The position numbers and the translations under genes were made by a program. A model generated the notes under the pieces. That model did not search any database and had not been told where the DNA came from. It worked only from the letters and a program-made list of their open reading frames with translations. DNA of 64,000 nucleotides from a virus (Duplodnaviria > Caudoviricetes). Positions 2,953 through 50,645 of this stretch are shown one piece after another. Every line of letters begins with the position of its first letter. The first letter of the stretch is position 1. The stretch covers positions 1-64,000 of IMG/VR virus record IMGVR_UViG_3300020577_013934; one strand, written 5' to 3'.

Positions 2953-2974
2953 GCAGAAAGGTTAGGACAATCCG

Positions 2975-3901
2975 ATGGACGAGGACACCGCCAACGCCGC
3001 GCTCGACGCGGCGAAAACCGCAGCCGAGACGCAGCCGATCACGACGGTGATCGAGGGCGCACCGACCCCCGCCGAGATGCTCCGGCGCGCCCGCGCGGCG
3101 GGCAAGACCGACGCCGAGATCAATGCGTTCGCCGCGTCGCAGCCGATGAAGCCGATCGCGATCAAGGGCACGCGCGTGTTCGTGCAGGACTGCTTCGGGC
3201 GCACCTTCGGCTTCGACAACATCCCCGACAAGGAGCTCGCCGCGCTCGTCGCGAAGGGCGTGCCGTATACGCCGTACAGCAACCGCGACGAGATGCGGAA
3301 CGACGCGCGCGGTGGGCGCGACGCGGGTTCCCACCGGATGCAGCTCGCGCCGCGCGCGACGCTGCGCCAGATGCAGGCCGAGCTCGCCCCGCGCGCCGCG
3401 ATGGTGCGCGCGGCGCTCGCGCCGTCGATGCGCAACGTGCTGGCGACGATCGAGCGGGGGACGAAGGTCTCGCGCAAGGAGTACGAGACGCTGCTCGCCG
3501 AGGTGACCAAGGCGGAGGCCGCGCGCACGCCCGAGGCCGGCACCGTCGAGTTCGGCGACATGCTCGCGGCGCAGTCCTCGCCGCTCAACCCCGTGCGCGC
3601 CGCGAGCGCCGCGCTCGGCCTCGACGACGCCGTCGTCGCGCGCATCGTCGCGTGCGTGGAGGCCGCCAAGCGCGACGCGCCCGTGCCCGACGCGCCGCGC
3701 GACTTCGAGGTCGAGGACGCCGCGAGCGCGATGATCGCGCTGGCGCTGGACACGGCGGGATCGCGCGTCGAGCGGCTGAGCGCCGCGCTCGACAAGCTCG
3801 ACACGTACGCCGCCTTCCGCGCGAGCCGCAAGGGCAAGGCGCTGGAGCTCTTCCTCGCGCGCTACGAGCGCGAGGTCGAAAACGACGGAGCCACCGGGTA
3901 G
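2975..3901 (+). CDS. Hypothetical protein
   Basis: 308-aa ORF with strong GC3 bias; TAG stop. Confidence 0.85.
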   Translation: MDEDTANAALDAAKTAAETQPITTVIEGAPTPAEMLRRARAAGKTDAEINAFAASQPMKPIAIKGTRVFVQDCFGRTFGFDNIPDKELAALVAKGVPYTPYSNRDEMRNDARGGRDAGSHRMQLAPRATLRQMQAELAPRAAMVRAALAPSMRNVLATIERGTKVSRKEYETLLAEVTKAEAARTPEAGTVEFGDMLAAQSSPLNPVRAASAALGLDDAVVARIVACVEAAKRDAPVPDAPRDFEVEDAASAMIALALDTAGSRVERLSAALDKLDTYAAFRASRKGKALELFLARYEREVENDGATG

Positions 3902-3961: not shown

Positions 3962-4465
3962 ATGAACAACGAACAGACCCACACCGCGTCCGACACCCGC
4001 ACGACCGCGTCGCGCACCGAGCGCGCCACCCGCCCCACGCACGCCGACCCGGGCGGCCTCTTCGCCCGCGCGAAGGACGACCCCAAGTTCGTGGTCCGCT
4101 CGCTCGACGCGGGGCCCGAGCGCGTCGTGCTCGTGCTCGCGCGGGCGCTGCACGCCACGCTCGGCAACGAGAGCTACGAGCCCGGCGACGAGTACCGCAA
4201 GTCGTACCCGGCGATGGTCGTGCGCGAGCGCCCCGCCGCCGACGTCGGCAAGCCCGACAACGAGTCGGAGTGGACCGTGCTCGGCATCTACCGTCACGTC
4301 CAGGTGCTCGACGGCGGCACGTTCGAGTTCGTGCCTCCGGGCGCGCGCCTCAAGCGCCTGAACGGCGACGAGGCGTCGCTCGTGATGCGCACGACGGGCG
4401 CGCTGCGCACGTTCGAGCACGCCGACGACCAGAAGGTGAAGGAGGGGGACTACATCCCCTGCTGA
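3962..4465 (+). CDS. Hypothetical protein
   Basis: AAGGAG SD before ATG 3962; GC3 bias. Confidence 0.85.
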   Translation: MNNEQTHTASDTRTTASRTERATRPTHADPGGLFARAKDDPKFVVRSLDAGPERVVLVLARALHATLGNESYEPGDEYRKSYPAMVVRERPAADVGKPDNESEWTVLGIYRHVQVLDGGTFEFVPPGARLKRLNGDEASLVMRTTGALRTFEHADDQKVKEGDYIPC

Positions 4466-9992: not shown

Positions 9993-10076
9993 GTTCTCCG
10001 CGCGGATGAACAACGCGACACAAGCCTTTCGATATGCTCGCAAGATGCGTTTCACGTCGTAGGTTGAGAGGGTGTC

Positions 10077-10108
10077 CCCGGGTCGTGAGACCCGGGGGCT
10101 TTTCTTTT
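10077..10108 (+). terminator. Rho-independent terminator
   Basis: CCCCGGGTC-GTGA-GACCCGGGG followed by CTTTTCTTTT. Confidence 0.85.
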
Positions 10109-10125
10109 GGCCGCCGTTTACCGTG

Positions 10126-10791
10126 TTACGTGATCTTGTGTGCAGCCATCAACGAAGATTGGTACATGCGGATCTGGTAGTCTCGCAGGACGCGATTGTA
10201 TGCGGCGACTTCGTGGTAGGTCGCATTGCTGTAGTTGTTCAGGTACGATCGCCCGAAGCGCATGACGCCGGTCGTGACTTGCGTGGGCCCTGACGCAACA
10301 CTGGTCCACGGCCCGCCGTTCACGGAGCTGCGTAGTGTCACGCCGTCGTGTGTGACGGTTACAAGTATCTTTTGGCCGAATGTGACGGAGTATGTATTGA
10401 CTTGGGCTGCGCCGTCCCAGTTGTATACGCCGATAGTGCCGCCGAGCCGTGCAAACACGCCGAAGTACCCTAACGAATCACTGAAGACACCGTCATTGGT
10501 GTACATCGTGCCGTTGTTGTTGGTGGCTGAGACTATGTTGACGACGAAAAACAGTGTCTTTGCGCTGGCACCGAAGAATGTCGCGAGCGACGACGCCGAC
10601 GTCGGAATGATACTCTGCGTTGTGCCGTTGGTGGTCGGAATACCACTCGCCACGCTGGGCGGCGTGGGCCCGTCGCCGAAGCTGATGCCGCCCGCGCGCG
10701 TCGTCCAGACGCCGCTTGTGTAGCCGTTGGGTCGCAGCCACAAGGTGCAGTTGGGGAAGTTGGTTGCGCGGCGTCGACGTTGGAAGATCAT
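10126..10791 (-). CDS. LamG/concanavalin-like domain virion accessory protein
   Basis: TLWLRP, beta-rich, ILVTVTHDG...SVNG and EVAAYNRVL motifs. Confidence 0.7.
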   Translation of the reverse strand: MIFQRRRRATNFPNCTLWLRPNGYTSGVWTTRAGGISFGDGPTPPSVASGIPTTNGTTQSIIPTSASSLATFFGASAKTLFFVVNIVSATNNNGTMYTNDGVFSDSLGYFGVFARLGGTIGVYNWDGAAQVNTYSVTFGQKILVTVTHDGVTLRSSVNGGPWTSVASGPTQVTTGVMRFGRSYLNNYSNATYHEVAAYNRVLRDYQIRMYQSSLMAAHKIT

Positions 10792-11864
10792 GCGATGAAC
10801 CACGAGGAGCCGTTGGAGTACAGGTCGATCGAGCCGTAACCTACCTCGATCGCGACGTTCGCGCTGCCCTCGATCGTGCCCGACGGCGGCTGGATCAGGA
10901 TCTGCACGGTCGGCGACGCTGACCCGGTCTCGTCTTTGATCTTGATCGGGAACATGCCGTTGACGGCCGATGCAGCGGGCAGCGTTAGCGTGCGCGTCGC
11001 GGTCAGCCCCGTGACGCGAACGAGATTCGCCGTCACGGCGATCGTCGCGTCGGTGTCGTTGACACTCTGCTGGCGAAACACGAGGCCGGTGTTGATGTTT
11101 GCGGGCTTGCCCGTGTTCGCGTCACCGATCTGAAGGGTGTCGGTATTATCTAATCCGATGAGGATTCTTAGATTCGTACCGGCACTGTCCTGTGAGAGAA
11201 CCGGGACGAAATTTTTGAGCAGGATGCTCCCCCCGATGCCGGCTGATAGATTGGTACCGAGATCGAGCGCGCCGTCAGTCTGTACGGTGATGCGTGTGAC
11301 GCTGTTGATCTGGAGCCGGTATTGGTATGACGTTGGAACGTTGAATGTGAGGTTGTCGACGCCAGCGATCGTGCCCGGCGTGCTGACGATCAAGCCGTCC
11401 AAGAACGTCTTCGTCCCGCTGAACGACTGTGCTCCTGACGTAACGACACCTGTTTGGCCGCTGCCAGCTGGATTGACTGCGACTGTGACGTTGCCGGAAA
11501 GTGCAACGGGGGTGTTTACGCCGTTCACAGTCACCGGTGAAGTTCCGGTGACTGTTCGACTTGGGGGTACTGCGTTGGTGTCGACGTAGTTTTTCGTCGC
11601 CGCGTCGCTGTTGGCAGAGGGTGGACCCAAGTTGATGACACGGAATCCGCCGAGGCTTTGATCTCCTGTAAAAGGCACGGTGCCGTCGGCCAGGATTACA
11701 CCGCTCGGTGCGGCGGCGTCGACGTAGCCCTTTGTCGCTGCATCGCTGATTGCAGCAGGTGTCGCCAGTCCCGTAAGTCGCTGATTGCCGACGTTCCAAA
11801 TACTCGTCAGCGGTGTTGAGCCGTCGATGCGGACGAAACCTTGAGGGGATCGACTGACAAACAT
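10788..11864 (-). CDS. Tail fibre-like protein
   Basis: Two DAATKxYVD fibre repeats, T/G-rich, TRTLTLPAAS...IKIKDE C-terminus; TACACT 5 nt upstream of ATG. Confidence 0.75.
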   Translation of the reverse strand: MFVSRSPQGFVRIDGSTPLTSIWNVGNQRLTGLATPAAISDAATKGYVDAAAPSGVILADGTVPFTGDQSLGGFRVINLGPPSANSDAATKNYVDTNAVPPSRTVTGTSPVTVNGVNTPVALSGNVTVAVNPAGSGQTGVVTSGAQSFSGTKTFLDGLIVSTPGTIAGVDNLTFNVPTSYQYRLQINSVTRITVQTDGALDLGTNLSAGIGGSILLKNFVPVLSQDSAGTNLRILIGLDNTDTLQIGDANTGKPANINTGLVFRQQSVNDTDATIAVTANLVRVTGLTATRTLTLPAASAVNGMFPIKIKDETGSASPTVQILIQPPSGTIEGSANVAIEVGYGSIDLYSNGSSWFIA

Positions 11865-11956
11865 ACTCAAGTGTAAGCAGCTCCAATCTTTTGCGACCTA
11901 TGTTCTGTATGTCGCTTGGACCTTCGTCTGTTGCGTATATTTCACAAGGAGTCTTC

Positions 11957-12511
11957 ATGCGCCTCATCGAGACGATCAAAAGCCGTACAGCACTTGCCAT
12001 TGGCGCAGCGATGCGCAACGCGCTCAATGAACTTCTTCCTATTGGTCGTGCTTCGCTGAACATCAAGCACCAGCGTGTACGCCGTAAAGGTGAACTCTAC
12101 GTCCTGGAAGATGTGGGGCCTGAAGAGAAGGTATGGAATCTCATCACCAACGCAGGGCGCGACTACCTGCATCTTCAGGGTTACGGGACGGCAGGGCTCG
12201 GAACCAACGGGCTGAACTACATCGCGCTGTCGAATGACACTGTTACGGAAACGTCAGCATCAACCACGCTGTCCAACGAGATCACGCTCAATGGTCTTGG
12301 GCGTGCGCAAGGGACATATGCCCATACGGCAGGAACCAACACAACGACACTCTCGCGTGTGTTTACAGCGTCTGGTACTCAAAGCGCACAGAAAGCAGCT
12401 CTTTTCACGGCTTCTTCGTCAGGCACGATGAACCACGTCCTCGGATTTACGCAGCGTTCTTTGATCTCGGGGGACACGTTGTCTCTCACATTCACGATTA
12501 CATTGGGTTGA
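11957..12511 (+). CDS. Putative tail/baseplate-associated structural protein
   Basis: AAGGAG SD; NLITNAG, YIALS, LFTASSSGTM and GDTLSLTFTI motifs typical of phage tail-fibre-associated proteins. Confidence 0.7.
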   Translation: MRLIETIKSRTALAIGAAMRNALNELLPIGRASLNIKHQRVRRKGELYVLEDVGPEEKVWNLITNAGRDYLHLQGYGTAGLGTNGLNYIALSNDTVTETSASTTLSNEITLNGLGRAQGTYAHTAGTNTTTLSRVFTASGTQSAQKAALFTASSSGTMNHVLGFTQRSLISGDTLSLTFTITLG

Positions 12512-12513
12512 TC

Positions 12514-12903
12514 ATGGTTGTGTCCGAGATCTACGGTTTATGGCACAAAGCAAACATCGAAAACGCCGCAGGCTTGGTTGTCCTTACACCCAGCGGTGTT
12601 GTGGTTTGGTGGGTAGATGGTGTGCTCGAACAGATTGAGGGGGGGACTGTCGTCGAGGCGATTCGCATCGCTTATGGCGAGCAGTACGTTGCGCGTGAGA
12701 CACAACTGCTCCAGGTTGTGCGATACATGATCAAAGAAACGTCCTCGGATGAACCCAAAGGGTTCGCGTATTGTTTTCCTGGTGCGCAAGTCGTCATCGC
12801 TTGGAACGACAAGACGCTTGAGGTGTGGGACAAAGATGCAAAACTGGATGCGGTTCTCGCCCAGTATGCTTTTCAATTTACTTTCCAGTGTTTGGACCAA
12901 TGA
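12514..12903 (+). CDS. Hypothetical protein
   Basis: 129-aa ORF tightly packed in the operon. Confidence 0.7.
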   Translation: MVVSEIYGLWHKANIENAAGLVVLTPSGVVVWWVDGVLEQIEGGTVVEAIRIAYGEQYVARETQLLQVVRYMIKETSSDEPKGFAYCFPGAQVVIAWNDKTLEVWDKDAKLDAVLAQYAFQFTFQCLDQ

Positions 12904-14030
12904 ACACCATCACCACGCAGAAGTCGCGTTCCAATCCTTCCGCTATCACCGCTACACAGCTTGCTGCGATTGACGCTGTGCGGGGAATCGATCGGCTGTT
13001 ACCTATTATGCACGGTCGGCGCGTGGTTGGCGCGACTTTTGCGCCTCCTTGGTGGCTTTGTGCCACTAAGCCGGAGTTGTTTCCCGATGATGTGTTGTTT
13101 AAACCCCTCGATATGAGTTTGGAGCAATATCAGAAGTGGGCGGGGTTTCTGTCGTACGACGCGATTATCAACGCGATCAGCACGAATGGGGCTTTTTTTC
13201 CTGCGAAGTTCTCGAAGGGCGCGACAACAGCACCAGTGGCGAACAACTGGTACGATCTTTGGCCTGTCGGAGGCTCTCCGGCTGCGGGTGCTTATGCAGG
13301 CGCCGCTTTCACCGCCGTGCAATTCTCGGACGCCACATCTGGCGCCCTTTATCACGCAGGAAACCAGTCACCAAGTACCAAACACTTGATCTCGATGGAT
13401 GCGCGCTCGACGGGTGGTACTCCAACGTTGATTCTGTATGATCGCGTTCTGACATACGAGGCGTGCACGTTTAACGCAAGCGTCAATCAAGCGATGACGA
13501 ATACGCTTGCCGCTCAGCGCTACATCAGCTCGGGTCAACCGGGGTTGAAGATCATCACGACGTGTCAGACTGTATTCGGCGCAACAGCCTCGAACTTCAC
13601 ACAGCTTCAGTACACTGATCAAGCTGGAAACACGCTCCAATCTATGCCCGTGGCCGCGTTTAACGCGATCATTGTCAGCGCAGCGGCGCCAACGACCACG
13701 CTTGGGGCCCGTGTTGTTTCACCCAGCAACACAGCTGCAACTTTGACGCAAGGTCCGTTCATGCCCCTGGCAGTTGGCGACGGAGGTGTTCGCTTGATTG
13801 CCAACTATACTACGTCGGCGGCAAACACTGGGACCATGGCGTTTGTTCTGGGGGCCCCTCTGGCGACGATTCCAATTCAGGTGGCGGGCGTGACCACCCT
13901 CATTGACATGGTTCAGCAACTTATTGGGTTGTACCGAGTCTTCGATGGCGCTTGTTTGTCTTTCCTTGCCTTTTTTCCGGCCGCTACTGCATCTACTTTC
14001 GACGGGTCCGTTAACTTTGCTTGGGGCTAA
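12900..14030 (+). CDS. Putative virion structural protein (beta-rich)
   Basis: ATGA coupling; 376 aa. Confidence 0.8.
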   Translation: MNTITTQKSRSNPSAITATQLAAIDAVRGIDRLLPIMHGRRVVGATFAPPWWLCATKPELFPDDVLFKPLDMSLEQYQKWAGFLSYDAIINAISTNGAFFPAKFSKGATTAPVANNWYDLWPVGGSPAAGAYAGAAFTAVQFSDATSGALYHAGNQSPSTKHLISMDARSTGGTPTLILYDRVLTYEACTFNASVNQAMTNTLAAQRYISSGQPGLKIITTCQTVFGATASNFTQLQYTDQAGNTLQSMPVAAFNAIIVSAAAPTTTLGARVVSPSNTAATLTQGPFMPLAVGDGGVRLIANYTTSAANTGTMAFVLGAPLATIPIQVAGVTTLIDMVQQLIGLYRVFDGACLSFLAFFPAATASTFDGSVNFAWG

Positions 14031-14033
14031 TCT

Positions 14034-15338
14034 GTGCCGCGTATTCGAGGCTATCCTGGCGGAACGCTGATCCTCTCGTTTGATAGAGGCTTCGTCGGGT
14101 GGTCTGAACGACGCGGAGATATGTTCGTAGGCAACCAAGGTGTGCCTGCGTCGAGCACGTACAAGTATCGGTTGCCGCTAAAGTCGCCGAACTCAACGAA
14201 TTACAACGAAGCCGTTAATGAAACGCTGACGCTGTCAGGCGCTTTGTTGACGAAGCTTGACGCCCTCCAGGGCCTTAATGCGTCCGTCGCTTTCAGCGAA
14301 GGTTTGGTTGTTCTTTATTCAGCCGTTCGGGGACTTTCAGAGACATTGACATTGTCAGAAGCCTTGAGCGCTGAGCTTGTGTCTGTCCTTGCTCTAGCTG
14401 AAACGGTTTCCGGTACTGAGGCACTTAGTGCCGCGTTGGGTAGTGTTGTGTCACTAACGGAAACATTGACGACAAGCGAACTCCTCGCTGCTGTTGGCAG
14501 TGTGATTGTGGGCCTTGCGGAAACAATTTCCGCCGTTGAATTGTTGTCGGTAGTACGTGGGGTTGTAAGTTTTTTGGCAGACACTGTAACACTCGACGAA
14601 GTGACGAGTGTTAGCTACAGCGCTATTCCACAGATTTTGGAGACCATTGGTGCAACAGAATCGCTTGTTGGGCAATTCTCCACAACGGGTACTATTGTTG
14701 AAACTGTTAGCGTAACGGAAGCGTTTTCCGCTGGCATCTTGTTTTTGACTTCGGTCTTTGAGCTTGTAACTCTTACAGAAGACCTTGCTACTACTTTTGC
14801 AGGGTTTCAGACCTTCTTTGAACCTGTGCTTCTCGCGGAGACTTTGCAGACGTCACGAAGTGTGTCGGTGGTATTGAATACCGCCGTGCTTCTGCTGGAG
14901 ACGCTTGCAACTCAGCTATCGGTGGGCGTTCAGATGTCTGCTTTGGTTCCGTGGGCTACAACGCTACTGCCTTCGTTCTCTACTTTCGTTCCACTGGTTG
15001 AAACGTTGCCGTCTTTTGACAGTATTGAAGCGCGTTTAGCGGCTGCATCGCAGTTGTCGACGCAGGTACTGGTTGTTGATGTTTTGAGCTCTACGTTTGA
15101 CGGGTTTCAACTTCTTGAAGAAACGTTTCAGTATCAAGAGCAACTGGGTACGCGTTACACCATTACGCTTCCGTTGGTTGTAGGTGTTGGCTGGTACGCC
15201 GACGTGGATGGATTTAGCTTGCGTTCGTCCACGACGCGAAAGCTGGATTCTGGCGAAGCTCCATTGCGAACAAGTGGAGGGCATTTAATCCTTCCTGTTC
15301 TCAAAAAGCCTATTCGCAAGTTGAAGGATGGTGCGTGA
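14034..15338 (+). CDS. Repeat-rich putative fibre protein (about 18-aa ET(L/I)xxxE repeats)
   Basis: About 20 imperfect repeats such as ETLTLSEALSAELVSVLALA. Confidence 0.75.
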   Translation: MPRIRGYPGGTLILSFDRGFVGWSERRGDMFVGNQGVPASSTYKYRLPLKSPNSTNYNEAVNETLTLSGALLTKLDALQGLNASVAFSEGLVVLYSAVRGLSETLTLSEALSAELVSVLALAETVSGTEALSAALGSVVSLTETLTTSELLAAVGSVIVGLAETISAVELLSVVRGVVSFLADTVTLDEVTSVSYSAIPQILETIGATESLVGQFSTTGTIVETVSVTEAFSAGILFLTSVFELVTLTEDLATTFAGFQTFFEPVLLAETLQTSRSVSVVLNTAVLLLETLATQLSVGVQMSALVPWATTLLPSFSTFVPLVETLPSFDSIEARLAAASQLSTQVLVVDVLSSTFDGFQLLEETFQYQEQLGTRYTITLPLVVGVGWYADVDGFSLRSSTTRKLDSGEAPLRTSGGHLILPVLKKPIRKLKDGA

Positions 15339-15892
15339 TGGCTACGGGTGTGCGGATCTACTGGGAAGCCGATACAGACCCTGATGTGCAGAATTACGAG
15401 ATTCGTCGAGGGCCGCAAGAGGGGCAACCTATTGTCCTGTTGCAGGTCGTTCCTCATGCGATTCCGGGCCTTAATTGGTCTGCGACGAAAAATAGATTCT
15501 TTTACGACGACCCACAAGGGGGTCCCGTGAACGTCTATCAGGTTACGGCTGTTTCTTCTGGTGGGGTGGCGATCGGCCAGACAGATGTCTTTACGCCGTT
15601 TGGTCCGACGGCTGCGACACCAATGAAGATTGCCGTGGATCACAACTATGGAGGGCCAGACGCTCTCCGGTTTGTGACCGAGAGTGGTGTTGGTATTCCA
15701 GACGCAGATGTGCGTGTGTACACCAAACCCGATTATGACGCGGGACGTTTTGCAGCGCCTATGTATGTTGTTCAGACAGATGACCAAGGACGCTGGCGCC
15801 GACCTGCGTTCTTGGATGCAGGGTTGGATTACGTCCTTTTGATGGAGAAACGTAGCGCTTACGTGAGTCAACCTACGCAGATCACTGTTTGA
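15338..15892 (+). CDS. Putative structural protein with Fn3/Ig-like and carboxypeptidase-regulatory-like domains
   Basis: IYWEAD..DVQNYEIRRG, YQVTAVS, GIPDADVRVY, TDDQGRW motifs. Confidence 0.7.
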   Translation: MATGVRIYWEADTDPDVQNYEIRRGPQEGQPIVLLQVVPHAIPGLNWSATKNRFFYDDPQGGPVNVYQVTAVSSGGVAIGQTDVFTPFGPTAATPMKIAVDHNYGGPDALRFVTESGVGIPDADVRVYTKPDYDAGRFAAPMYVVQTDDQGRWRRPAFLDAGLDYVLLMEKRSAYVSQPTQITV

Positions 15893-15942
15893 GGTTCAGG
15901 CACAATAGCGCTGAGCCGGCTGTTAATGCCGCGCGGGGAACT

Positions 15943-16017
15943 TGGCGGGACGGGAGGGAGTCGAACCCACGACCATCGGGTTAACGGCCCGATGCTCTGC
16001 CACTGAGCTACCGCCCC
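15943..16017 (-). tRNA. tRNA-Asn(GTT), CCA encoded
   Basis: Cloverleaf GGGGCGG/CCGTCCC; anticodon loop CC-GTT-AA; TTCGACT T-loop. Confidence 0.9.
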
Positions 16018-23203: not shown

Positions 23204-23392
23204 ATGAAGGTCAAGCTACACAACAACCACCCGGGCGCCGTCGCCGCGACGGACAACACCCTCAAGACCCTCGGCGGTGGCGTCCACGAGCTCAAGCGCG
23301 ACCCGAACGGCAACGTCATCTTCGACGAAGATGGGTTTGCCGAGGTCGCGACCACCAACCCTGGCTTCTTCAAGTTCGCTTACACCCGCTAG
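23204..23392 (+). CDS. Small hypothetical protein; TAG stop with plausible readthrough to TGA 23419
   Basis: ...FFKFAYTR-TAG-GYVAEVRD-TGA immediately before tmRNA. Confidence 0.7.
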   Translation: MKVKLHNNHPGAVAATDNTLKTLGGGVHELKRDPNGNVIFDEDGFAEVATTNPGFFKFAYTR

Positions 23393-23425
23393 GGCTACGT
23401 GGCAGAAGTACGCGACTGACCCTTC

Positions 23426-23773
23426 GGGGGCGAAACGGCTTCGACGTGGAGAACTAGGTCGAGACTGCGTCACAGGGCTGGGCCACCTCACGGCTTACGT
23501 AGAAACGCGAACGACAACGCGATGCTCGCAGCGGCCTGATAAGCCCCTGCGACGTCCTCGGGGCAGGCCGGCTCGGGTCGGCTTCGGGGGCGCAATCAAT
23601 CCGAGCTAGCGAGCGCGGGCGGTGCGGCCGGCGCGGGCGAGACACGCAGCACCAGACCAGACGAGACCCCGCCCGTGGGGATGCTCGGCGGGAGAAGAGA
23701 CACGCGGGACAGGTGACGTAGACGTCCGGCGGAACGCTTCGCGGACCCGGGTTCGACTCCCGGCGCCTCCACC
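23426..23773 (+). ncRNA. ssrA: tmRNA (one-piece); tag (A)ANDNAMLAAA
   Basis: 5' GGGGGCGAAACGGCTTCGAC; 3' GGGTTCGACTCCCGGCGCCTCCACC; G3-U alanine pair; tag ORF 23507-23539 followed by TGA TAA. Confidence 0.95.
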
Positions 23774-23794
23774 CTTCGTTCGCAGCGACAGGAC

Positions 23795-23842
23795 CCGACG
23801 GCCGGCAGGAGTGGAGACCCTGCCGGCCGTCGGCTTTTCTTT
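23795..23842 (+). terminator. Rho-independent terminator after tmRNA
   Basis: 15-bp stem CCGACGGCCGGCAGG/CCTGCCGGCCGTCGG plus CTTTTCTTT. Confidence 0.9.
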
Positions 23843-23868
23843 GGCCGTTACGCCGTATACTTCGGGCC

Positions 23869-24639
23869 ATGAGCACCTTCCGTTTCGTCGACGCCGGCAT
23901 GTACTGCCTCCAGCAGACCGTCTCCGGGACGGGTGTGTTCAGCGGCGTGCGCCTCGGCTACGCGACGTACAGCTACAACTCGGGTGGGGCCCAATTCGAC
24001 GTGCGCTTCCCGCACCTCGGCACCGACGGCAACGCGTACAAGTTCCAGATGGACGCGCCGCCGAACACTGTGCCGGTGGCGAAGACGACCGCGTTTTTCG
24101 ACAAGTCGTCCAAGACGCTGCGCGTGCAGCTGCGTGGCACGTCCGCCGCGATCACGTCCACTGCGCAAGAGGTCGTCGACGCGATCAACGGGCTCGACCG
24201 CCCGCTTTACGGCGCCGCGCTCGTCGCGGGCGCGGTAATCCCTGCCAGCCTCGCGCCCGTCAACCTCGCGGGCGGCCTCGACCCCGACCTCGCGGCCGGC
24301 TACGCGTTCCCCAAGCTCGCGCCCCCGGCCAACACGAACGGCGGCCTGTTCTACTTCGACCAGAACCGTCCCTGGAAGCTCCAGACCGTGGGCGGCGCGC
24401 TCGGCGCAGACGCGACGCTCAAGGTGTCCATCGTCAACGTGGACAAGGCGCTGCGCGTCATCGGCACGGCGGCCGTGGTACTGTCGTCGCAGAACCTCAC
24501 GACCCCGTGGCAGCCGACCGGCACGCGCATCGACGTGCCGGTGATGCCGGGGCAGGCCGTGCAGGTTACCGCCAACACGCAGGGCACGGTCTTCGTGACG
24601 GCGGCCTCCCTCACCGCGATGGACAACATCTCCGACTGA
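23869..24639 (+). CDS. Putative virion structural protein, paralog of 28677-29471
   Basis: Shared VSGTGxFxG, TAxEVxxAxN, GGxDP, PPxNxNxG and PGQ motifs; TATACT 7 nt upstream. Confidence 0.75.
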   Translation: MSTFRFVDAGMYCLQQTVSGTGVFSGVRLGYATYSYNSGGAQFDVRFPHLGTDGNAYKFQMDAPPNTVPVAKTTAFFDKSSKTLRVQLRGTSAAITSTAQEVVDAINGLDRPLYGAALVAGAVIPASLAPVNLAGGLDPDLAAGYAFPKLAPPANTNGGLFYFDQNRPWKLQTVGGALGADATLKVSIVNVDKALRVIGTAAVVLSSQNLTTPWQPTGTRIDVPVMPGQAVQVTANTQGTVFVTAASLTAMDNISD

Positions 24640-24842
24640 TGGGCGACGCGAAGTTCACACCCCCGACCAACGCCTCGACGATCGCCGACGGGCCGTGCCC
24701 GTTCTGTTCCGGCACCTACGCCGTCTGCCGCGACAACGACACGGGCGACCCGTTCCTCACGCACACGATGGAGCCGTGCGCGCAGTTCGTCGCGTTCGAG
24801 CCCGACGTGTACCTGCGGTGCGTCCGCCAGGGCGTGAATTGA
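24639..24842 (+). CDS. Small Cys-containing hypothetical protein
   Basis: TGATG coupling; CPFC motif. Confidence 0.7.
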   Translation: MGDAKFTPPTNASTIADGPCPFCSGTYAVCRDNDTGDPFLTHTMEPCAQFVAFEPDVYLRCVRQGVN

Positions 24843-24873
24843 CAGCGCGCCCGGCGCTGCCTACGCTCCTCCC

Positions 24874-24894
24874 ATGATCACCGACCTGATGTAG
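24874..24894 (+). other. Leaderless minigene MITDLM-TAG upstream of and in frame with 24973
   Basis: TACGCT -10 six nt before ATG 24874; TAG 24892-24894; no further stop before ATG 24973. Confidence 0.4.
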
Positions 24895-24972
24895 CTGTCG
24901 CCGTCGCGCGGACCTCCCTCCGAGAGCCGGTCTCCCACCGCGTTCTCTCGTCCGAGTTCAGGAGGTTCCGTC

Positions 24973-25260
24973 ATGTCGAAGATCAAGCTGTTCATCAAGT
25001 CTCAGGCCGAGGCCCAGTCGTCGCACCGCCGCGCGCGTCCCCGCGACGCCGGGTGGGCCTCGAACCGCCTCGCGATCCGCCGCACCGCCCGCGCGGCGCT
25101 GCTGCTCTACGCGTTCTCGCGCGGCGTCGCGTACACCAAGCTGGAGCGCCGGGCGCACGAGCCACCGCCCGTGTGGCTCGCCGCCAAGCTCTCGGCGGAG
25201 CTGTGCGAGGCCCCCGTCACGGAAGGAGCGCTGTCCGCATGGACGACCGCTGCTACGTGA
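24973..25260 (+). CDS. Conserved phage hypothetical protein
   Basis: AGGAGG SD; IRRTARAALLLYAFSRGVAYTKLE motif. Confidence 0.8.
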   Translation: MSKIKLFIKSQAEAQSSHRRARPRDAGWASNRLAIRRTARAALLLYAFSRGVAYTKLERRAHEPPPVWLAAKLSAELCEAPVTEGALSAWTTAAT

Positions 25261-25547
25261 TCACGCGGTCCGACCTGCCCGTGCCCCAGCAGGCCGTGCA
25301 GGCGGCGCACGCCGCCCAGACCTTCGCCGGTCGCCACCCCGGCGACTACGCGCAGACCACGCTCGTCGTGCTCACCGTGCCCGACGAGCCGGCGCTCCGG
25401 GCACTGCGCGCACGCTTCGAGGCCACGCCCGCGCGCCTCGCCGCGTTCCACGAGCCCGACCGGGGCGGCGAGCTCACGGCGTTCTGCGCGGCCGGCGCCC
25501 CGGCGCGGCGGCTGTGCGCGCGCCTGCCGATGGCCTTCACGCCGTAA
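25239..25547 (+). CDS. Peptidyl-tRNA hydrolase, Pth2-like
   Basis: YVITRSDL..QAVQAAHA, LVVLTVPDE..L, FHEPD.GGELTA. Confidence 0.85.
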   Translation: MDDRCYVITRSDLPVPQQAVQAAHAAQTFAGRHPGDYAQTTLVVLTVPDEPALRALRARFEATPARLAAFHEPDRGGELTAFCAAGAPARRLCARLPMAFTP

Positions 25548-25567
25548 AGCCGCCTACGCTTTCGTGC

Positions 25568-25891
25568 GTGAAGGCATCGCGCTACGCGCTCGACCACCTC
25601 CCCGCCGACAACCGACGCCTCGCCCTGCGCCTCTACAAGACTGAGATCCGCGCGCTGCTCGACGCGGCGAAGGACCGGCCCTGCGCGCGCTGCCGACAGG
25701 CGTTCCCGATCTGCTGCATGCAGTTCGACCACCTGCCAGGCACGCGCAAGCGCTTCAACCTGAGCGAGGCGCGCGCCGGGTTGATCCCGCGCCACGTCGT
25801 GTTACAAGAGCTCAAGAAGTGCGAGGTCGTGTGCGCGAACTGCCACGCAATCCGCGAGGACGAGCGGCGGCGTGTGTATGTCGCTGCGTGA
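25568..25891 (+). CDS. HNH-like endonuclease, paralog of 16130-16543
   Basis: CARC..MQFDH...KCEVVCANCHAIR. Confidence 0.8.
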   Translation: MKASRYALDHLPADNRRLALRLYKTEIRALLDAAKDRPCARCRQAFPICCMQFDHLPGTRKRFNLSEARAGLIPRHVVLQELKKCEVVCANCHAIREDERRRVYVAA

Positions 25892-25892
25892 G

Positions 25893-25963
25893 CGCCCCGG
25901 ATGGGAGTCGAACCCATCTCACCGCGTTTAGAGCGCGGTGCCTGACCGCTAGGCTACCGGGAC
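25893..25963 (-). tRNA. Amber-suppressor tRNA (anticodon CUA), CCA not encoded
   Basis: GTCCCGG TA GCCT AGCGGTC AGGC A CCGCG CT-CTA-AA CGCGG TGAG ATGGG TTCGACT CCCAT CCGGGGC G. Confidence 0.9.
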
Positions 25964-26391
25964 TTGTTGCGCCCACAGTATGTGGGTAGCTGCGAGTCGC
26001 AGTTGGGACAGAGTAGACGGAGATTGCGGAGTCGGTTGTCGTTGTTGTGCCCGTTGATGTGATCGAGGCGCAGGGTAAGCGGCTTTCCGCGCCACGTATT
26101 GATCCCGCACAACGCACACACGTGTTTGAGTAGTCCCGCTTTCAGCAAGCGGCGCTTGAGAGGCCCACGGGCGTACGTGCTGTTGGCGACCAACACGGCT
26201 TTGAGCGGGGTGTCGGTGCTTCGGCGTGAGCGCCCGTGTGCTTTTCCAGTCCAGTGTGTCGTGTCGAGTTTACGCCGTTCGACTTCGCGTTTGACGTAGC
26301 GGTAGTTGCTTCCGACGATCGCGCGCCCGAGGGTACGTATGACGCCTGCGATGGAGACGTTCTGTCGTACGGCTCGCTCGAAGGCGTCCAT
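25954..26391 (-). CDS. HNH homing endonuclease
   Basis: SIAGVIRTLG..GSNYR; CALCG..LRLDHINGHNNDNRLRNLRLLCPNCDSQLPTY; stop lies inside the tRNA 5' end. Confidence 0.9.
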   Translation of the reverse strand: MDAFERAVRQNVSIAGVIRTLGRAIVGSNYRYVKREVERRKLDTTHWTGKAHGRSRRSTDTPLKAVLVANSTYARGPLKRRLLKAGLLKHVCALCGINTWRGKPLTLRLDHINGHNNDNRLRNLRLLCPNCDSQLPTYCGRNKSR

Positions 26392-27164: not shown

Positions 27165-27989
27165 TCAAGCCACCGGCGTGCGCTGGTGGTAGCCGTAGTC
27201 GATGCGCTGGGCGATCTTCTTTGGGTCGAAGTCGAGCGGGTCGTCCATCCACGCGATCTCCGGCGCGTGCACGCGCACCGCGACCCCAGCGAGGTCTGCC
27301 GACCGGAGGTCGTTGACGTAGACCTCGTCGCTCAGGATACCCGCCGCGCGCAGCCCGATGTCGATCGCGCTGCGCCCCTTCTGCACGTCCCACTCGGCCA
27401 CGTCGCCCCGCAGCGGCGAGGTCAGCACGACGTCGACCTCGGTGGCGCCGGCCTTCACGGCGTCGAGGATCGGCGTGACGTTGCGCACGCCGCCGTCGAC
27501 CCACAGGTCCCCGTCGATGTACGACGGCCGGAACGCGACCGGGAACGCCGCGCTCGCCATGACCCACTCGGCGAGTCGGTCGTCGCGCTCGGTGATCGTG
27601 CGGTAGTGGCCCGTCTTGAGGCTGACGGCGCCGAGGCGCAGCCGCACGCCGGAGCGGCGGATGACGACCTCGCTCATCGCGCCTTCGACCAGCGCGCGCA
27701 GCGGCGCGGTGTCGTACATCGCGCCCTGCCACAGCAGCGCGAGCGCGCCCATGGTCCAGCCGGTGTAGATCGACCGGTTGCCGGTGATGCGGCGCCAGAA
27801 CGCCTCCAGCGTCATGGCCCCCGCGCGCTGGGTTTGCACACTGAAGTGCGCCATATGTGCAGCGTTGATCGCGCCGACCGAGACGCCCGCGATCACGTCC
27901 CATCGACCACCTTGCTCGGTGAGTCGCTTCAGCACACCGACTTGGTACGCGCCGCGCGCGCCGCCACCTGAGAGCACGAGAGCTTTCAT
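27165..27989 (-). CDS. Patatin-like phospholipase
   Basis: LSGGGARG, GVSVG nucleophile elbow, DGG motif. Confidence 0.92.
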   Translation of the reverse strand: MKALVLSGGGARGAYQVGVLKRLTEQGGRWDVIAGVSVGAINAAHMAHFSVQTQRAGAMTLEAFWRRITGNRSIYTGWTMGALALLWQGAMYDTAPLRALVEGAMSEVVIRRSGVRLRLGAVSLKTGHYRTITERDDRLAEWVMASAAFPVAFRPSYIDGDLWVDGGVRNVTPILDAVKAGATEVDVVLTSPLRGDVAEWDVQKGRSAIDIGLRAAGILSDEVYVNDLRSADLAGVAVRVHAPEIAWMDDPLDFDPKKIAQRIDYGYHQRTPVA

Positions 27990-33634: not shown

Positions 33635-34039
33635 ATGCACGCCACCCCGTTCGACGTCTGCCTCCGCTGCCGCGAGACGCGCGTGGTGCCCGCGTTCAGC
33701 ACCACGCCGGTCGAGCCCCGCTGCGCCTGCGGCGGCCCCGGCGCGCCCGCGCCCGGCGCCTCCGGCGTCGACTTCGAGCAAGCCGTCTCGGACGCCTACG
33801 CGGCGTTCGACGCGGAGTGCGCGGGCGAGGACCCCCGCCAGACGCTGCTGCGCATGCAGCACTTCGCGTCGAGCGCGGCGGTGGCGATGCTCGAAGGCAA
33901 CACCAAGCTCTACGTGTCGTGCCTCGTGAGCAACGCCGCGCTGTCGCGGCTGCTCACGGCGCGCGCCCTCACCCCCGACGAGACCGACGATGCCGACGCC
34001 GACGAACACGTGGCTGGCGCGCCTGCGCGCGATCCGTAA
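33635..34039 (+). CDS. Hypothetical protein with N-terminal zinc ribbon
   Basis: CLRC...CACG; TAGACT 6 nt upstream. Confidence 0.7.
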   Translation: MHATPFDVCLRCRETRVVPAFSTTPVEPRCACGGPGAPAPGASGVDFEQAVSDAYAAFDAECAGEDPRQTLLRMQHFASSAAVAMLEGNTKLYVSCLVSNAALSRLLTARALTPDETDDADADEHVAGAPARDP

Positions 34040-49146: not shown

Positions 49147-49971
49147 TCAGTACAGCGGCTCGATGGCGTTGGGGTTCAGGGGGTACCGATAGAGTACGTG
49201 GTCGTGCGGCAGCTCCTGGCCCGAGACCTCTTGGTGCGCCGAGTTCAGCTGGATCTGCGTCTCGACCTGCTGGTCGAGCCGGAAGCGCCGATTGTCCGAG
49301 AGCCGCACGAGGACGTCGTCGCGCTCCAGCGTCGGGTAGTCCGGCAGCCAGAACGAGCCGTCGTTGGCGTCGCTCTTCTGGTTAGGACCCACGGCCGACG
49401 TGTTCGCCGTGACGTTGCTGCGCGCGTACGTGACGAACGGCGCCCAGTAGCCGCCGACGAAGCCGGTGCCCCAGCACTCCGCGCAGTTCGGCCGCACGAC
49501 CTCCTTGGTGCGCTTGTCGGCGCACTTCAGGCAGCGCACGCCCCAGCGCCGCTTCTTGAGCAACACGACGCGCGTGCCGTTGAACTTGAGCGTCAGCCGG
49601 AAGTCGCGCTGCGTCTTGCGCAGGTACTGGCTCATCTTGCGGTCCGCGAAGAACGGCCCGGTCTCCTCCTTCGTCTCCAGCGTCGCGCCCGACGGCAGGC
49701 GGCACACGACGCGGTAGTGGACCTCCTGGAACAGGCGCAGCGAGTTCGGCTGGAGCACGTCGAGCGTCGACGCGACGCCGTTGAACTTGTCGTCGAACGA
49801 GTACTGGTCGTTGCCGGCGAAGAGCTGCTCCCACGGACCCTCGGGGCCGCCGCTGCGGTACAGCGTGAACTGGAAGACGCCGCTCTCGGTGGGCGCGACG
49901 TCGTCGATCGTCCACTGCACGAAGTAGCCGTACGGGAACAGCGCGCTGAGGCGGGTGATCTTGAGGTTCAT
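49147..49971 (-). CDS. Putative head closure/neck protein
   Basis: RRWGVRC..C...C.ECWGTGFVGGY motif; PTLERDDVLV...RF. Confidence 0.7.
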   Translation of the reverse strand: MNLKITRLSALFPYGYFVQWTIDDVAPTESGVFQFTLYRSGGPEGPWEQLFAGNDQYSFDDKFNGVASTLDVLQPNSLRLFQEVHYRVVCRLPSGATLETKEETGPFFADRKMSQYLRKTQRDFRLTLKFNGTRVVLLKKRRWGVRCLKCADKRTKEVVRPNCAECWGTGFVGGYWAPFVTYARSNVTANTSAVGPNQKSDANDGSFWLPDYPTLERDDVLVRLSDNRRFRLDQQVETQIQLNSAHQEVSGQELPHDHVLYRYPLNPNAIEPLY

Positions 49972-50645
49972 GGCTGCGGCGGCTCCACCGGGGACTCCTG
50001 CGCGTCGCCCGTCGACTCGGCCATCTGGTCGAACGCCCGCCGGAGCGCGTAGCGCTTGGTCTCCTGACTGCCCGCGAGCTCGTGCGCGCGGTTCCACGCC
50101 CGCGACTCCGGCGGACGCGGGTCGATGTGGTCGGTGTCGAACTTCCCCTCGGCCAGGGGGGTGACGTTGGTCTCGGGCGACAGGCCCGCGCCTTTCACGA
50201 GCGTGCCCACGTCCTGGCCGCTCGGCGACATCTCGCGGCCGAGCACCGTCGCCAGCACGGGGCGGCTCCGCCCCGGGACGGCCTTGAACTGCGCGTAGCC
50301 GAGCACCGCCCCGTCGCGCCCGCGCAGCGGCACGTGGTAGCTGCCCGGCGGTAGGCCCAGCGCGTCGACGGCGCGCTGGAGGGGCCGCACGTTGCTGCGG
50401 GCGAACGGCGTGCGTTCCTCCATGCGGTCGTGCGCGTGGGCGGCACCCTTTACGGCGTACGGGGGTCCCTCGTCGCGCGGGCGGTCGTACCAGTTGAAGA
50501 AGTCGTTGGCGTCGAACGACGTGCCGACCTCCAGCGGGACCTGCTCCTTGCGCGACGCCCCGTTCGACCGGCTCGCCGGGTAGGCGGCGCCGGTGCCCTC
50601 GGCCACGGGCACGAGGTGGGTGAGGCGGCGCTCGGTCGGCGTCAT
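49968..50645 (-). CDS. Hypothetical K-x-A-type virion protein
   Basis: Start MTPTERRL; C-terminal RRAFDQM motif. Confidence 0.7.
   Translation of the reverse strand: MTPTERRLTHLVPVAEGTGAAYPASRSNGASRKEQVPLEVGTSFDANDFFNWYDRPRDEGPPYAVKGAAHAHDRMEERTPFARSNVRPLQRAVDALGLPPGSYHVPLRGRDGAVLGYAQFKAVPGRSRPVLATVLGREMSPSGQDVGTLVKGAGLSPETNVTPLAEGKFDTDHIDPRPPESRAWNRAHELAGSQETKRYALRRAFDQMAESTGDAQESPVEPPQP

Follow-up and report, generated by a model that had tools for sequence, protein, structure and literature searches.

Candidate amber-gated operon of a PTH2-like protein linked to a suppressor tRNA in a standard-code jumbo-phage contig

The window analysed here (the whole stretch of DNA, 64,000 nucleotides) is the first 64 kb of a 77.6-kb viral contig from IMG/VR (record IMGVR_UViG_3300020577_013934), estimated by CheckV to be about 45% complete. 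The contig has a G + C content of about 70%. Because its genes include those of a split multisubunit RNA polymerase and one for a protease-like head protein, it was considered as a fragment of a jumbo phage; DNA searches of GenBank phages returned no match to the region and no close relative. The subject of this report is a gene cluster comprising a transfer-messenger RNA (tmRNA), a short leader open reading frame (ORF) interrupted by the amber codon TAG, the gene of a helical partner protein, the gene of a divergent member of the PTH2 superfamily and a transfer RNA (tRNA) with the amber anticodon CUA. The original prediction, made from the sequence of the window, had drawn attention to the tRNA, the tmRNA and the hydrolase; it had missed the key element, an amber-interrupted leader with the motif Arg-Gly-Pro-Pro (RGPP) at 24874-24918, followed by the 95-amino-acid partner gene at 24973-25260.

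ARAGORN and Rfam agree on three RNA genes: the tRNA-CUA, the tmRNA and a tRNA-Asn. The tRNA-CUA lies on the minus strand at 25892-25963 (59.4 bits for Rfam RF00005, whose threshold is 29; in the numbering of ARAGORN, CUA is at position 33). It is a class I tRNA with a 4-nucleotide (nt) variable loop, G73, a 7-nt anticodon loop CU-CUA-AA and no encoded CCA, and the intact cloverleaf first described was thereby confirmed in its details. The one-piece tmRNA is on the plus strand at 23426-23773, with the tag ANDNAMLAAA, and is complete as predicted, matching model positions 1-374 of RF00023 with 84.8 bits; a terminator-like hairpin and T-run stand behind it at 23822-23834 (plus strand). The tRNA was measured to lie 345 bp from the PTH2-like gene and 2.1 kb from the tmRNA (350 bp and 2.1 kb in the original prediction). 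The closest relatives of the locus (L004, L099 and L100) also have a tRNA-CUA beside the PTH2-like gene, so that CUA is not a private mutation absent from relatives, an eventuality that had been named as speaking against the system. Decoding of UAG by this tRNA, which implies that it is expressed and charged, is considered as putative and is supported indirectly by the matching gate codons of the relatives described below. With its acceptor stem GUCCC, its G73 and a variable loop of 4 nt, the tRNA looks Glu/Gln-like; similarity searches (BLAST against two actinomycete metagenome-assembled genomes, MAGs, and alignment to 256 tRNAs of the related loci) did not settle the amino acid, the nearest relatives being an odd short tRNA(CAA) and other suppressors. 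Four odd tRNAs were seen beside family members (L105:2239-2314; L005:10325-10400; L018:10596-10667; L107:1501-1576): among them are a 6-nt loop holding CUA, a tRNA read as UAA, a GCA anticodon with C33, and the short class-I-shaped tRNA(CAA) that is the closest kin of the window tRNA.

The protein of 102 amino acids encoded at 25239-25547 (plus strand) was assigned to a divergent branch of the PTH2 superfamily, which bears out the Pth2-like identity first proposed; profile and fold evidence were needed for this assignment. By itself, the protein had no Pfam match even at an E-value of 10 and no sequence match in PDB. A profile built from 34 homologs matched archaeal and human Pth2 structures over the full length (E 4e-10), and the AlphaFold model (predicted local distance difference test, pLDDT, of 95) gave PTH2 chains as the top 12 rows of the Foldseek search, followed by Atu0240, a protein of unknown function (template modelling scores of 0.73-0.76, probability 1.0). 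PF01981 was found in the relatives P0041 and P0060, and weakly in P0010, P0013 and P0092. Invariant residues of the family are D12, Q18, Q21, H24, E72, P73 and T80. In a library of 1.8 billion proteins, 5,050 cluster representatives matched at E <= 1e-3. Among 185,579 species genomes only four had a match, all of them MAG contigs, one of 425 kb that is also catalogued as phage and the rest of 3.9-5.9 kb; on these searches, the family appears nearly confined to phages. Cultured members are found in Mycobacterium cluster C phages, Rak2/GAP32-like jumbo phages, Aeromonas, Xanthomonas and Ralstonia phages, Salmonella phage Arash and a Synechococcus phage. They were recovered only with more typical family queries, tblastn with the 102-amino-acid protein of the window having matched nothing.

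The partner protein (24973-25260, plus strand, 95 amino acids, designated N-domain) is all-helical and was recognised by homology to a domain that is fused to the N-terminus of the PTH2-like domain in P0017, P0041, P0047, P0048 and P0060; it is encoded by a separate upstream gene in L008, L009, L012 and L035. Its model has a pLDDT of 83, and no match was obtained in Pfam, in PDB sequences or with Foldseek. The partner ORF overlaps the PTH2-like ORF by 22 nt, in a different frame and exactly at the fusion point of the relatives, and a programmed frameshift may yield a fusion protein. An Ala-Ala C-terminus resembling an ssrA tag is very frequent in the partners of L008, L009, L012 and L035 and in the fused P0017, P0041, P0048 and P0060, which may indicate built-in instability; the partner protein of the window ends in ...AAT. 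In L008, L012 and L035, an extra conserved ORF of about 145 amino acids with Cys/His pairs (zinc-finger-like) is present between the partner and PTH2-like genes, and the operon of the window has no counterpart at that place.

Upstream of the partner gene, the leader mini-ORF (24874-24894, plus strand) reads ATG-ITDLM-TAG, that is six sense codons and then the amber codon that forms the candidate gate. In frame behind the TAG, the RGPP codons (24907-24918, plus strand) come five codons past the stop and constitute both a candidate arrest motif and a candidate anti-Shine-Dalgarno (anti-SD) sequence. A promoter-like element, TTGACA-17 nt-TACGCT (24839-24867, plus strand), was read from the sequence, a strict consensus scan having missed it; only 6 nt separate its end from the leader ATG, so that the mRNA would be leaderless, and the same promoter-to-ATG spacing is found in L008 and L103 (TTGACA-17-TAnnnT in the three loci). 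The Shine-Dalgarno (SD) sequence of the partner gene, AGGAGG, is at 24960-24965 (plus strand). In the minimum free energy fold (-42.5 kcal/mol, z -2.5), the Gly-Pro-Pro codons at 24910-24917 are predicted to pair with 24961-24968 and thus to sequester this SD. The PTH2-like ORF itself has an ordinary SD and ATG. With the pattern M-x(1-14)-stop-x(0-8)-R[AG]PP, the leader was the only match in the six frames of the 77.6-kb contig.

The same six-frame search of 1.84 Mb of related loci gave 10 matches, of which nine are on the strand of the gene and 0.3-2.7 kb upstream of PTH2-like genes that have no gate of their own. TAG leaders accompany a tRNA-CUA in the window, L006, L009 and L047, TAA leaders accompany a tRNA-UUA in L008, L010, L012 and L035, and a further TAA leader, with the motif RAPP, is on a short contig without tRNA (L103). 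Among the eight leaders with a readable tRNA (four TAG/CUA and four TAA/UUA), there is no mismatch between the leader stop and the neighbouring anticodon. The motif R[GA]PP is kept in nine leaders while its wobble bases differ, and this conservation of the amino acids despite third-position changes indicates that the sequence past the stop is translated. The leader frame of L006 and L047 closes 18-20 codons beyond RGPP, so that the element would behave as an attenuator and not as an N-terminal extension. Single-sequence folds of six leaders paired the SD with the RGPP codons in four cases and with bases 4-10 nt downstream of them in two; all six predicted pairings would fall inside the footprint of a ribosome stalled at the motif.

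A second form of gate is placed inside the PTH2-like ORF. In about 36 of the first 47 loci, SD-ATG-x(0-8)-stop is in frame ahead of the conserved domain, the stop occupying one of codons 2-10, and no canonical start codon follows it. Next to a tRNA-CUA, this stop is always TAG; in L050, which has two tRNA-UCA as neighbours, it is TGA. A purine invariably follows the stop, a context that favours suppression in E. coli. Independent ENA, JGI and GTDB contigs show the same arrangement (L099, L100, L102, L105 and L106). Among cultured phages, Cronobacter phage GAP32 (NC_019401, 290117-290464) has ATG-GCA-CAA-TAG followed by the domain, with a tRNA-CUA 2.8 kb downstream, and its annotated coding sequence is truncated N-terminally. 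Salmonella phage Arash (OQ632216, about 49176-50560) has ATG-CTG-TAG, with a tRNA-CUA 1 kb downstream that is labelled tRNA-Phe in GenBank, a mislabelling. Ralstonia phage RsoM2USA (MG752970, 68859-69230) has ATG-TTG-TAG ahead of a gated gene that is unannotated; the RsoM2USA paper reports one CUA tRNA. In the GenBank records of these three phages, the amber-gated gene is truncated or omitted. A second in-frame TAG was seen within the domain of two members (L011:2134-2451 and L020:86-337), which may stem from truly recoded phages. In Mycobacterium phage Catera (L114), gp153, annotated as peptidyl tRNA hydrolase (2974-3354), is preceded by ATG-TAG-GTG, and a tRNA 250 bp further on (3605-3678), called tRNA-Arg in GenBank, has a 9-nt anticodon loop containing CUA; Catera was left as ambiguous.

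The linkage of the gene to suppressor tRNAs was counted in 45 non-identical related loci with a homolog, within the fetched flank. A suppressor tRNA is present in 38 of these loci, and it is the tRNA nearest to the gene in 36 of the 44 that hold any tRNA (for comparison, 44 of the 173 tRNAs counted there are suppressors). Most are CUA; UUA occurs in four loci and one locus has two UCA. Their structures vary (70-92 nt, class I as well as class II), so that the link is with suppression as such and not with one amino acid. In six further lineages (L032, L042, L044/45, L046, L050), a tmRNA is found 1-5 kb from the PTH2-like gene. These comparisons of loci support the view that the suppressor tRNA, the PTH2-like gene and, less often, the tmRNA are parts of a recurrent, functionally coupled module of standard-code phages.

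The phage of the window uses the standard code, at least in the sequenced part, because TAG is an ordinary stop and no convincing internal TAG was found by a scan of the 77.6 kb that sought stops flanked on either side by a coding signature; the original prediction of a genome that is not globally recoded is upheld. In-frame TAG is absent also from the RNA-polymerase genes and the protease-like head gene. Gene calls based on the G + C content of third codon positions gave 54 TGA, 18 TAG and 10 TAA stops on the contig, and TAG ends 18 of 83 genes (22%), 16 of these stops being within the window, for which about 15 had been announced. The hallmark of code 15 (TAG inside many genes and rare as a stop) is therefore lacking on the contig. 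Open tails behind the TAG stops have a median length of 77 codons, without enrichment of back-up stops. No excess of TAG inside homologous alignments was detected in the 20-kb loci by a tblastn count of stops, which is noisy, and the coverage of six-frame ORFs under alternative codes was considered as too crude to call recoding. Neither a release factor (a search of the rest of the genome for release factor 2 had been proposed) nor SmpB (PF01668) was found on the 77.6 kb; SmpB may come from the host or from the missing part of the genome.

Read-through of particular genes did not receive the same support. The small ORF before the tmRNA (23204-23392, plus strand, 62 amino acids, ending in TAG, no family match), described at the outset as reading naturally through its stop, meets an in-frame TGA eight codons beyond, and its read-through has no support of its own; it is considered as a mere neighbour of the module. 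At the TAG codons at 3899, 33623, 53400 and 64420, where read-through fusions were considered, PHROG searches were blank and homology gave no support. These fusion candidates were rejected: each of the following genes at 3962, 53399 and 64386 starts with a clear SD and ATG, and that at 33635 has only a weak SD. The long open tails behind the TAG stops, without back-up stops, likewise lend no support to fusions.

Between the PTH2-like gene and the tRNA-CUA lies a gene for an HNH endonuclease (25553-25891, plus strand; phrog_3106, 2e-21), and a second one (25954-26391, minus strand; phrog_10822, 1e-42) has its TAG stop within the 5' end of the tRNA gene. The suppressor tRNA is thus bracketed by two HNH genes, and insertion of a homing endonuclease seems to have split an ancestral adjacency of gene and tRNA. 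A patatin-like phospholipase gene (27165-27989, minus strand; PF01734, 1e-35) belongs to the run of minus-strand genes whose last member is next to the tRNA. A Cys-rich ORF of 67 amino acids is present at 24639-24842. Farther away, a segment of low G + C content (10000-16000, 52-58% compared with about 70%) ends at the tRNA-Asn(GUU) gene (15943-16017, minus strand) and is possibly acquired.

We propose, with a probability of about 0.6, that expression of the operon is wired to the activity of tRNA(CUA) through the RGPP leader switch, and that its products recycle peptidyl-tRNA or stalled ribosomes. With release factor 1 (RF1) alone, the ribosome would terminate after six sense codons and the operon would stay closed. 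Charged tRNA(CUA) would read the UAG and let the ribosome reach RGPP, where it would stall; its footprint would melt the anti-SD:SD helix, and the freed SD would permit translation of the partner protein (24973-25260) and of the PTH2-like hydrolase (25239-25547). These two proteins, together with the tmRNA, would recycle the peptidyl-tRNA or stalled ribosomes left by the overriding of stops, and would keep translation going while the phage imposes read-through, possibly for host shut-off, counter-defence or another purpose. The recycling role, which we favour, fits the recurrent tmRNA. From the initial idea of an amber read-through buffered by phage-encoded rescue, the coupled module and the link between read-through and rescue are thus retained as the best reading, and the extension or fusion of proteins is abandoned. 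In its broader form, for which we see about even odds, the proposal is that jumbo phages carry a self-contained sensor of the state of the genetic code: a stop placed before an arrest motif or early in an ORF would report that the phage's own suppressor tRNA is overriding termination, and would switch on a PTH2-type enzyme that acts with its helical partner on ribosome-linked or free peptidyl-tRNA. This operon would then be the missing target of the orphan suppressor tRNAs of XacN1, RsoM2USA and GAP32.

Several observations weigh against this proposal. The PTH2-like ORF of the window has no internal stop. As the SD that precedes the partner gene is strong, the gate depends on a predicted RNA fold, and 3 of 200 shuffled sequences folded as well as the leader. 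Applied to the six leaders, RNAalifold found no covariation and, since neither the spacers nor the SD regions could be aligned, no consensus helix; the step of SD unmasking therefore rests on single-sequence predictions. Arrest at RGPP would have to occur on very short nascent chains (11-19 residues). Seven of the 45 loci have no suppressor in the fetched flank, several of them lying at contig ends. The 18 phage genes that end in TAG with long open tails imply that strong suppression would be costly to the phage itself. Finally, the position aligned with the Lys that precedes the AAQxxHAA motif of archaeal Pth2, a residue presumably catalytic in those enzymes, is variable in the family, and the chemistry may therefore differ from that of Pth2.

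The last two points also speak for a close alternative to recycling. It keeps the same sensor and makes the enzyme a brake: the PTH2-like protein would hydrolyse aminoacyl- or peptidyl-tRNA(CUA), so that read-through would induce its own inhibitor and be held at a set level, in a negative feedback like that of prfB. A phage with 18 TAG-ended genes and long tails would be hurt by unlimited suppression, the active site has diverged from that of canonical Pth2, a gate ahead of the regulated product is the classic layout of autoregulation, and a generic hydrolase of the tRNA 3' end would serve structurally diverse suppressors equally well. Nothing points to specificity for the suppressor tRNA, however, and the recurrent nearby tmRNA fits rescue better. 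Sequence alone does not separate this alternative from recycling, and we regard it as unlikely. Another account regards the enzyme as part of an anti-defence kit: tRNAs attacked by host anticodon nucleases would be repaired or replaced with the help of PTH2 and of tRNAs from the phage, the CUA anticodon and the leader being incidental. This role was proposed for jumbo-phage PTH2 by Iyer et al. 2021, and it would suit the frequent position of the gene in or beside tRNA arrays as well as the patatin-like and HNH genes nearby. It leaves unexplained that 36 of 44 loci have a suppressor as the tRNA nearest to the gene and that stop and anticodon match for TAG, TAA and TGA alike, and it is judged improbable.

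Slightly more credit, still low, is given to incipient or partial recoding with code 15, in which TAG would be a sense codon for genes of a recent ancestor or of the 55% of the genome that is missing here, and the leader would merely time them. The contig is about 45% complete, phages that are recoded have suppressor tRNAs and restrict in-frame stops to their late genes (Borges et al.), and the gain of a suppressor by standard-code relatives was proposed as the first step of reassignment (Borges et al.); the second in-frame TAG of the L011 and L020 genes goes in the same direction. The proposed model starts, however, from phages of low G + C content depleted in TAG, whereas this phage has 70% G + C, ends 22% of its genes with TAG and has no in-frame TAG in 77.6 kb, nor do the 20-kb loci show an excess of TAG in homologous alignments. 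Moreover, the module is present in the cultured standard-code phages GAP32, RsoM2USA and Arash (XacN1 also has a suppressor), and four leaders use TAA with a tRNA-UUA. The suggestion in the original prediction of an early stage of stop-codon reassignment is not sustained for these reasons. A mere chance neighbourhood of a decayed or mutated tRNA and an unrelated small gene would be compatible with the strand of the tRNA, which is opposite to that of the operon, and with the mobile HNH gene between the two. It is very improbable: the tRNA scores well over the threshold, and four collections contain dozens of diverged phages with the same pairing, so that the comparative data already contradict it.

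If the proposed wiring is correct, it would provide the first concrete target for the orphan suppressor tRNAs of standard-code phages and would mean that these tRNAs really read stop codons during infection; tRNA-dependent stop read-through would be a new input among arrest-peptide switches. Since the design is present in cultivable Cronobacter, Salmonella and Ralstonia phages, the model is directly testable, and those who work on genetic-code expansion could possibly adopt the gate as a natural reporter part. Systematic annotation errors also came to light in the comparison, with gated genes truncated or missing in GenBank and at least one mislabelled CUA tRNA. Jumbo-phage PTH2, phage tmRNAs, orphan suppressor tRNAs and RAPP/RGPP arrest peptides are already published separately; searches of full-text literature gave no paper joining suppressor tRNAs, arrest peptides and phages.

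The autoregulation of prfB, which encodes release factor 2 (RF2), uses an early in-frame UGA, and tnaC stalls at its stop codon. As in these systems, an early stop would sense the balance between termination and an alternative decoding event; unlike in prfB, the alternative event would here be brought about by a dedicated phage tRNA and not by a frameshift, and the product is not a release factor. With the recoded phages of code 15 and code 4 (crAss-like, Lak, Jade and Agate; Borges et al.), the module shares a phage suppressor tRNA and the clustering of code-change genes, but in the present contig 18 of 83 genes end in TAG and none has it inside, so that only the leader TAG would need to be read; that survey reports reassignment in phages for TAG and TGA only. 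The XacN1, RsoM2USA and Atu_ph07 papers describe suppressor tRNAs in standard-code jumbo phages and name no target. The present phage resembles them in its suppressor and its code, and differs in that a target is proposed, RsoM2USA itself having an amber-gated PTH2-like gene that was left unannotated. PTH2 (PF01981) was noted in jumbo phages (Iyer et al. 2021) and is annotated in Mycobacterium cluster C phages; the protein of the window shares with it the fold, a profile-level sequence match and the Asp, Gln and His of the N-terminal motif, and is distinguished by the lack of a Pfam match, a shorter loop, EPD where Pth2 has DAG, a helical partner domain and a candidate stop-codon gate, a form of gating previously unreported for PTH2.

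The leader can be compared with bacterial arrest peptides, for which ApdA, ApdP, ApcA, SecM (RAGP) and the RAPP/RGPP upstream ORFs of Streptomyces were taken as comparators (PMC12992588, PMC10951233, PMC7897499). Of all tetrapeptides, these two, RAPP and RGPP, cause the most robust arrest of bacterial ribosomes, in varied contexts and without rescue by elongation factor P (EF-P); many bacterial phyla avoid RGPP more than any other tetrapeptide, and short ORFs ahead of regulated genes employ both motifs (PMC12992588). The leader of the window (RGPP) and that of L103 (RAPP) have the same core motif in a short upstream ORF followed by a co-directional gene, and the downstream SD is predicted to be in a helix that a stalled ribosome would open. 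Known arrest peptides are reached by ordinary translation, usually after a localisation signal, whereas the leader of the window has six sense codons, a stop and no signal peptide. Arrest would depend here on a suppressor tRNA, and not on secretion or membrane insertion, would occur on a very short nascent chain, and would regulate a PTH2-like hydrolase and its partner. The position of an arrest motif behind an in-frame stop is the novel feature of this leader.

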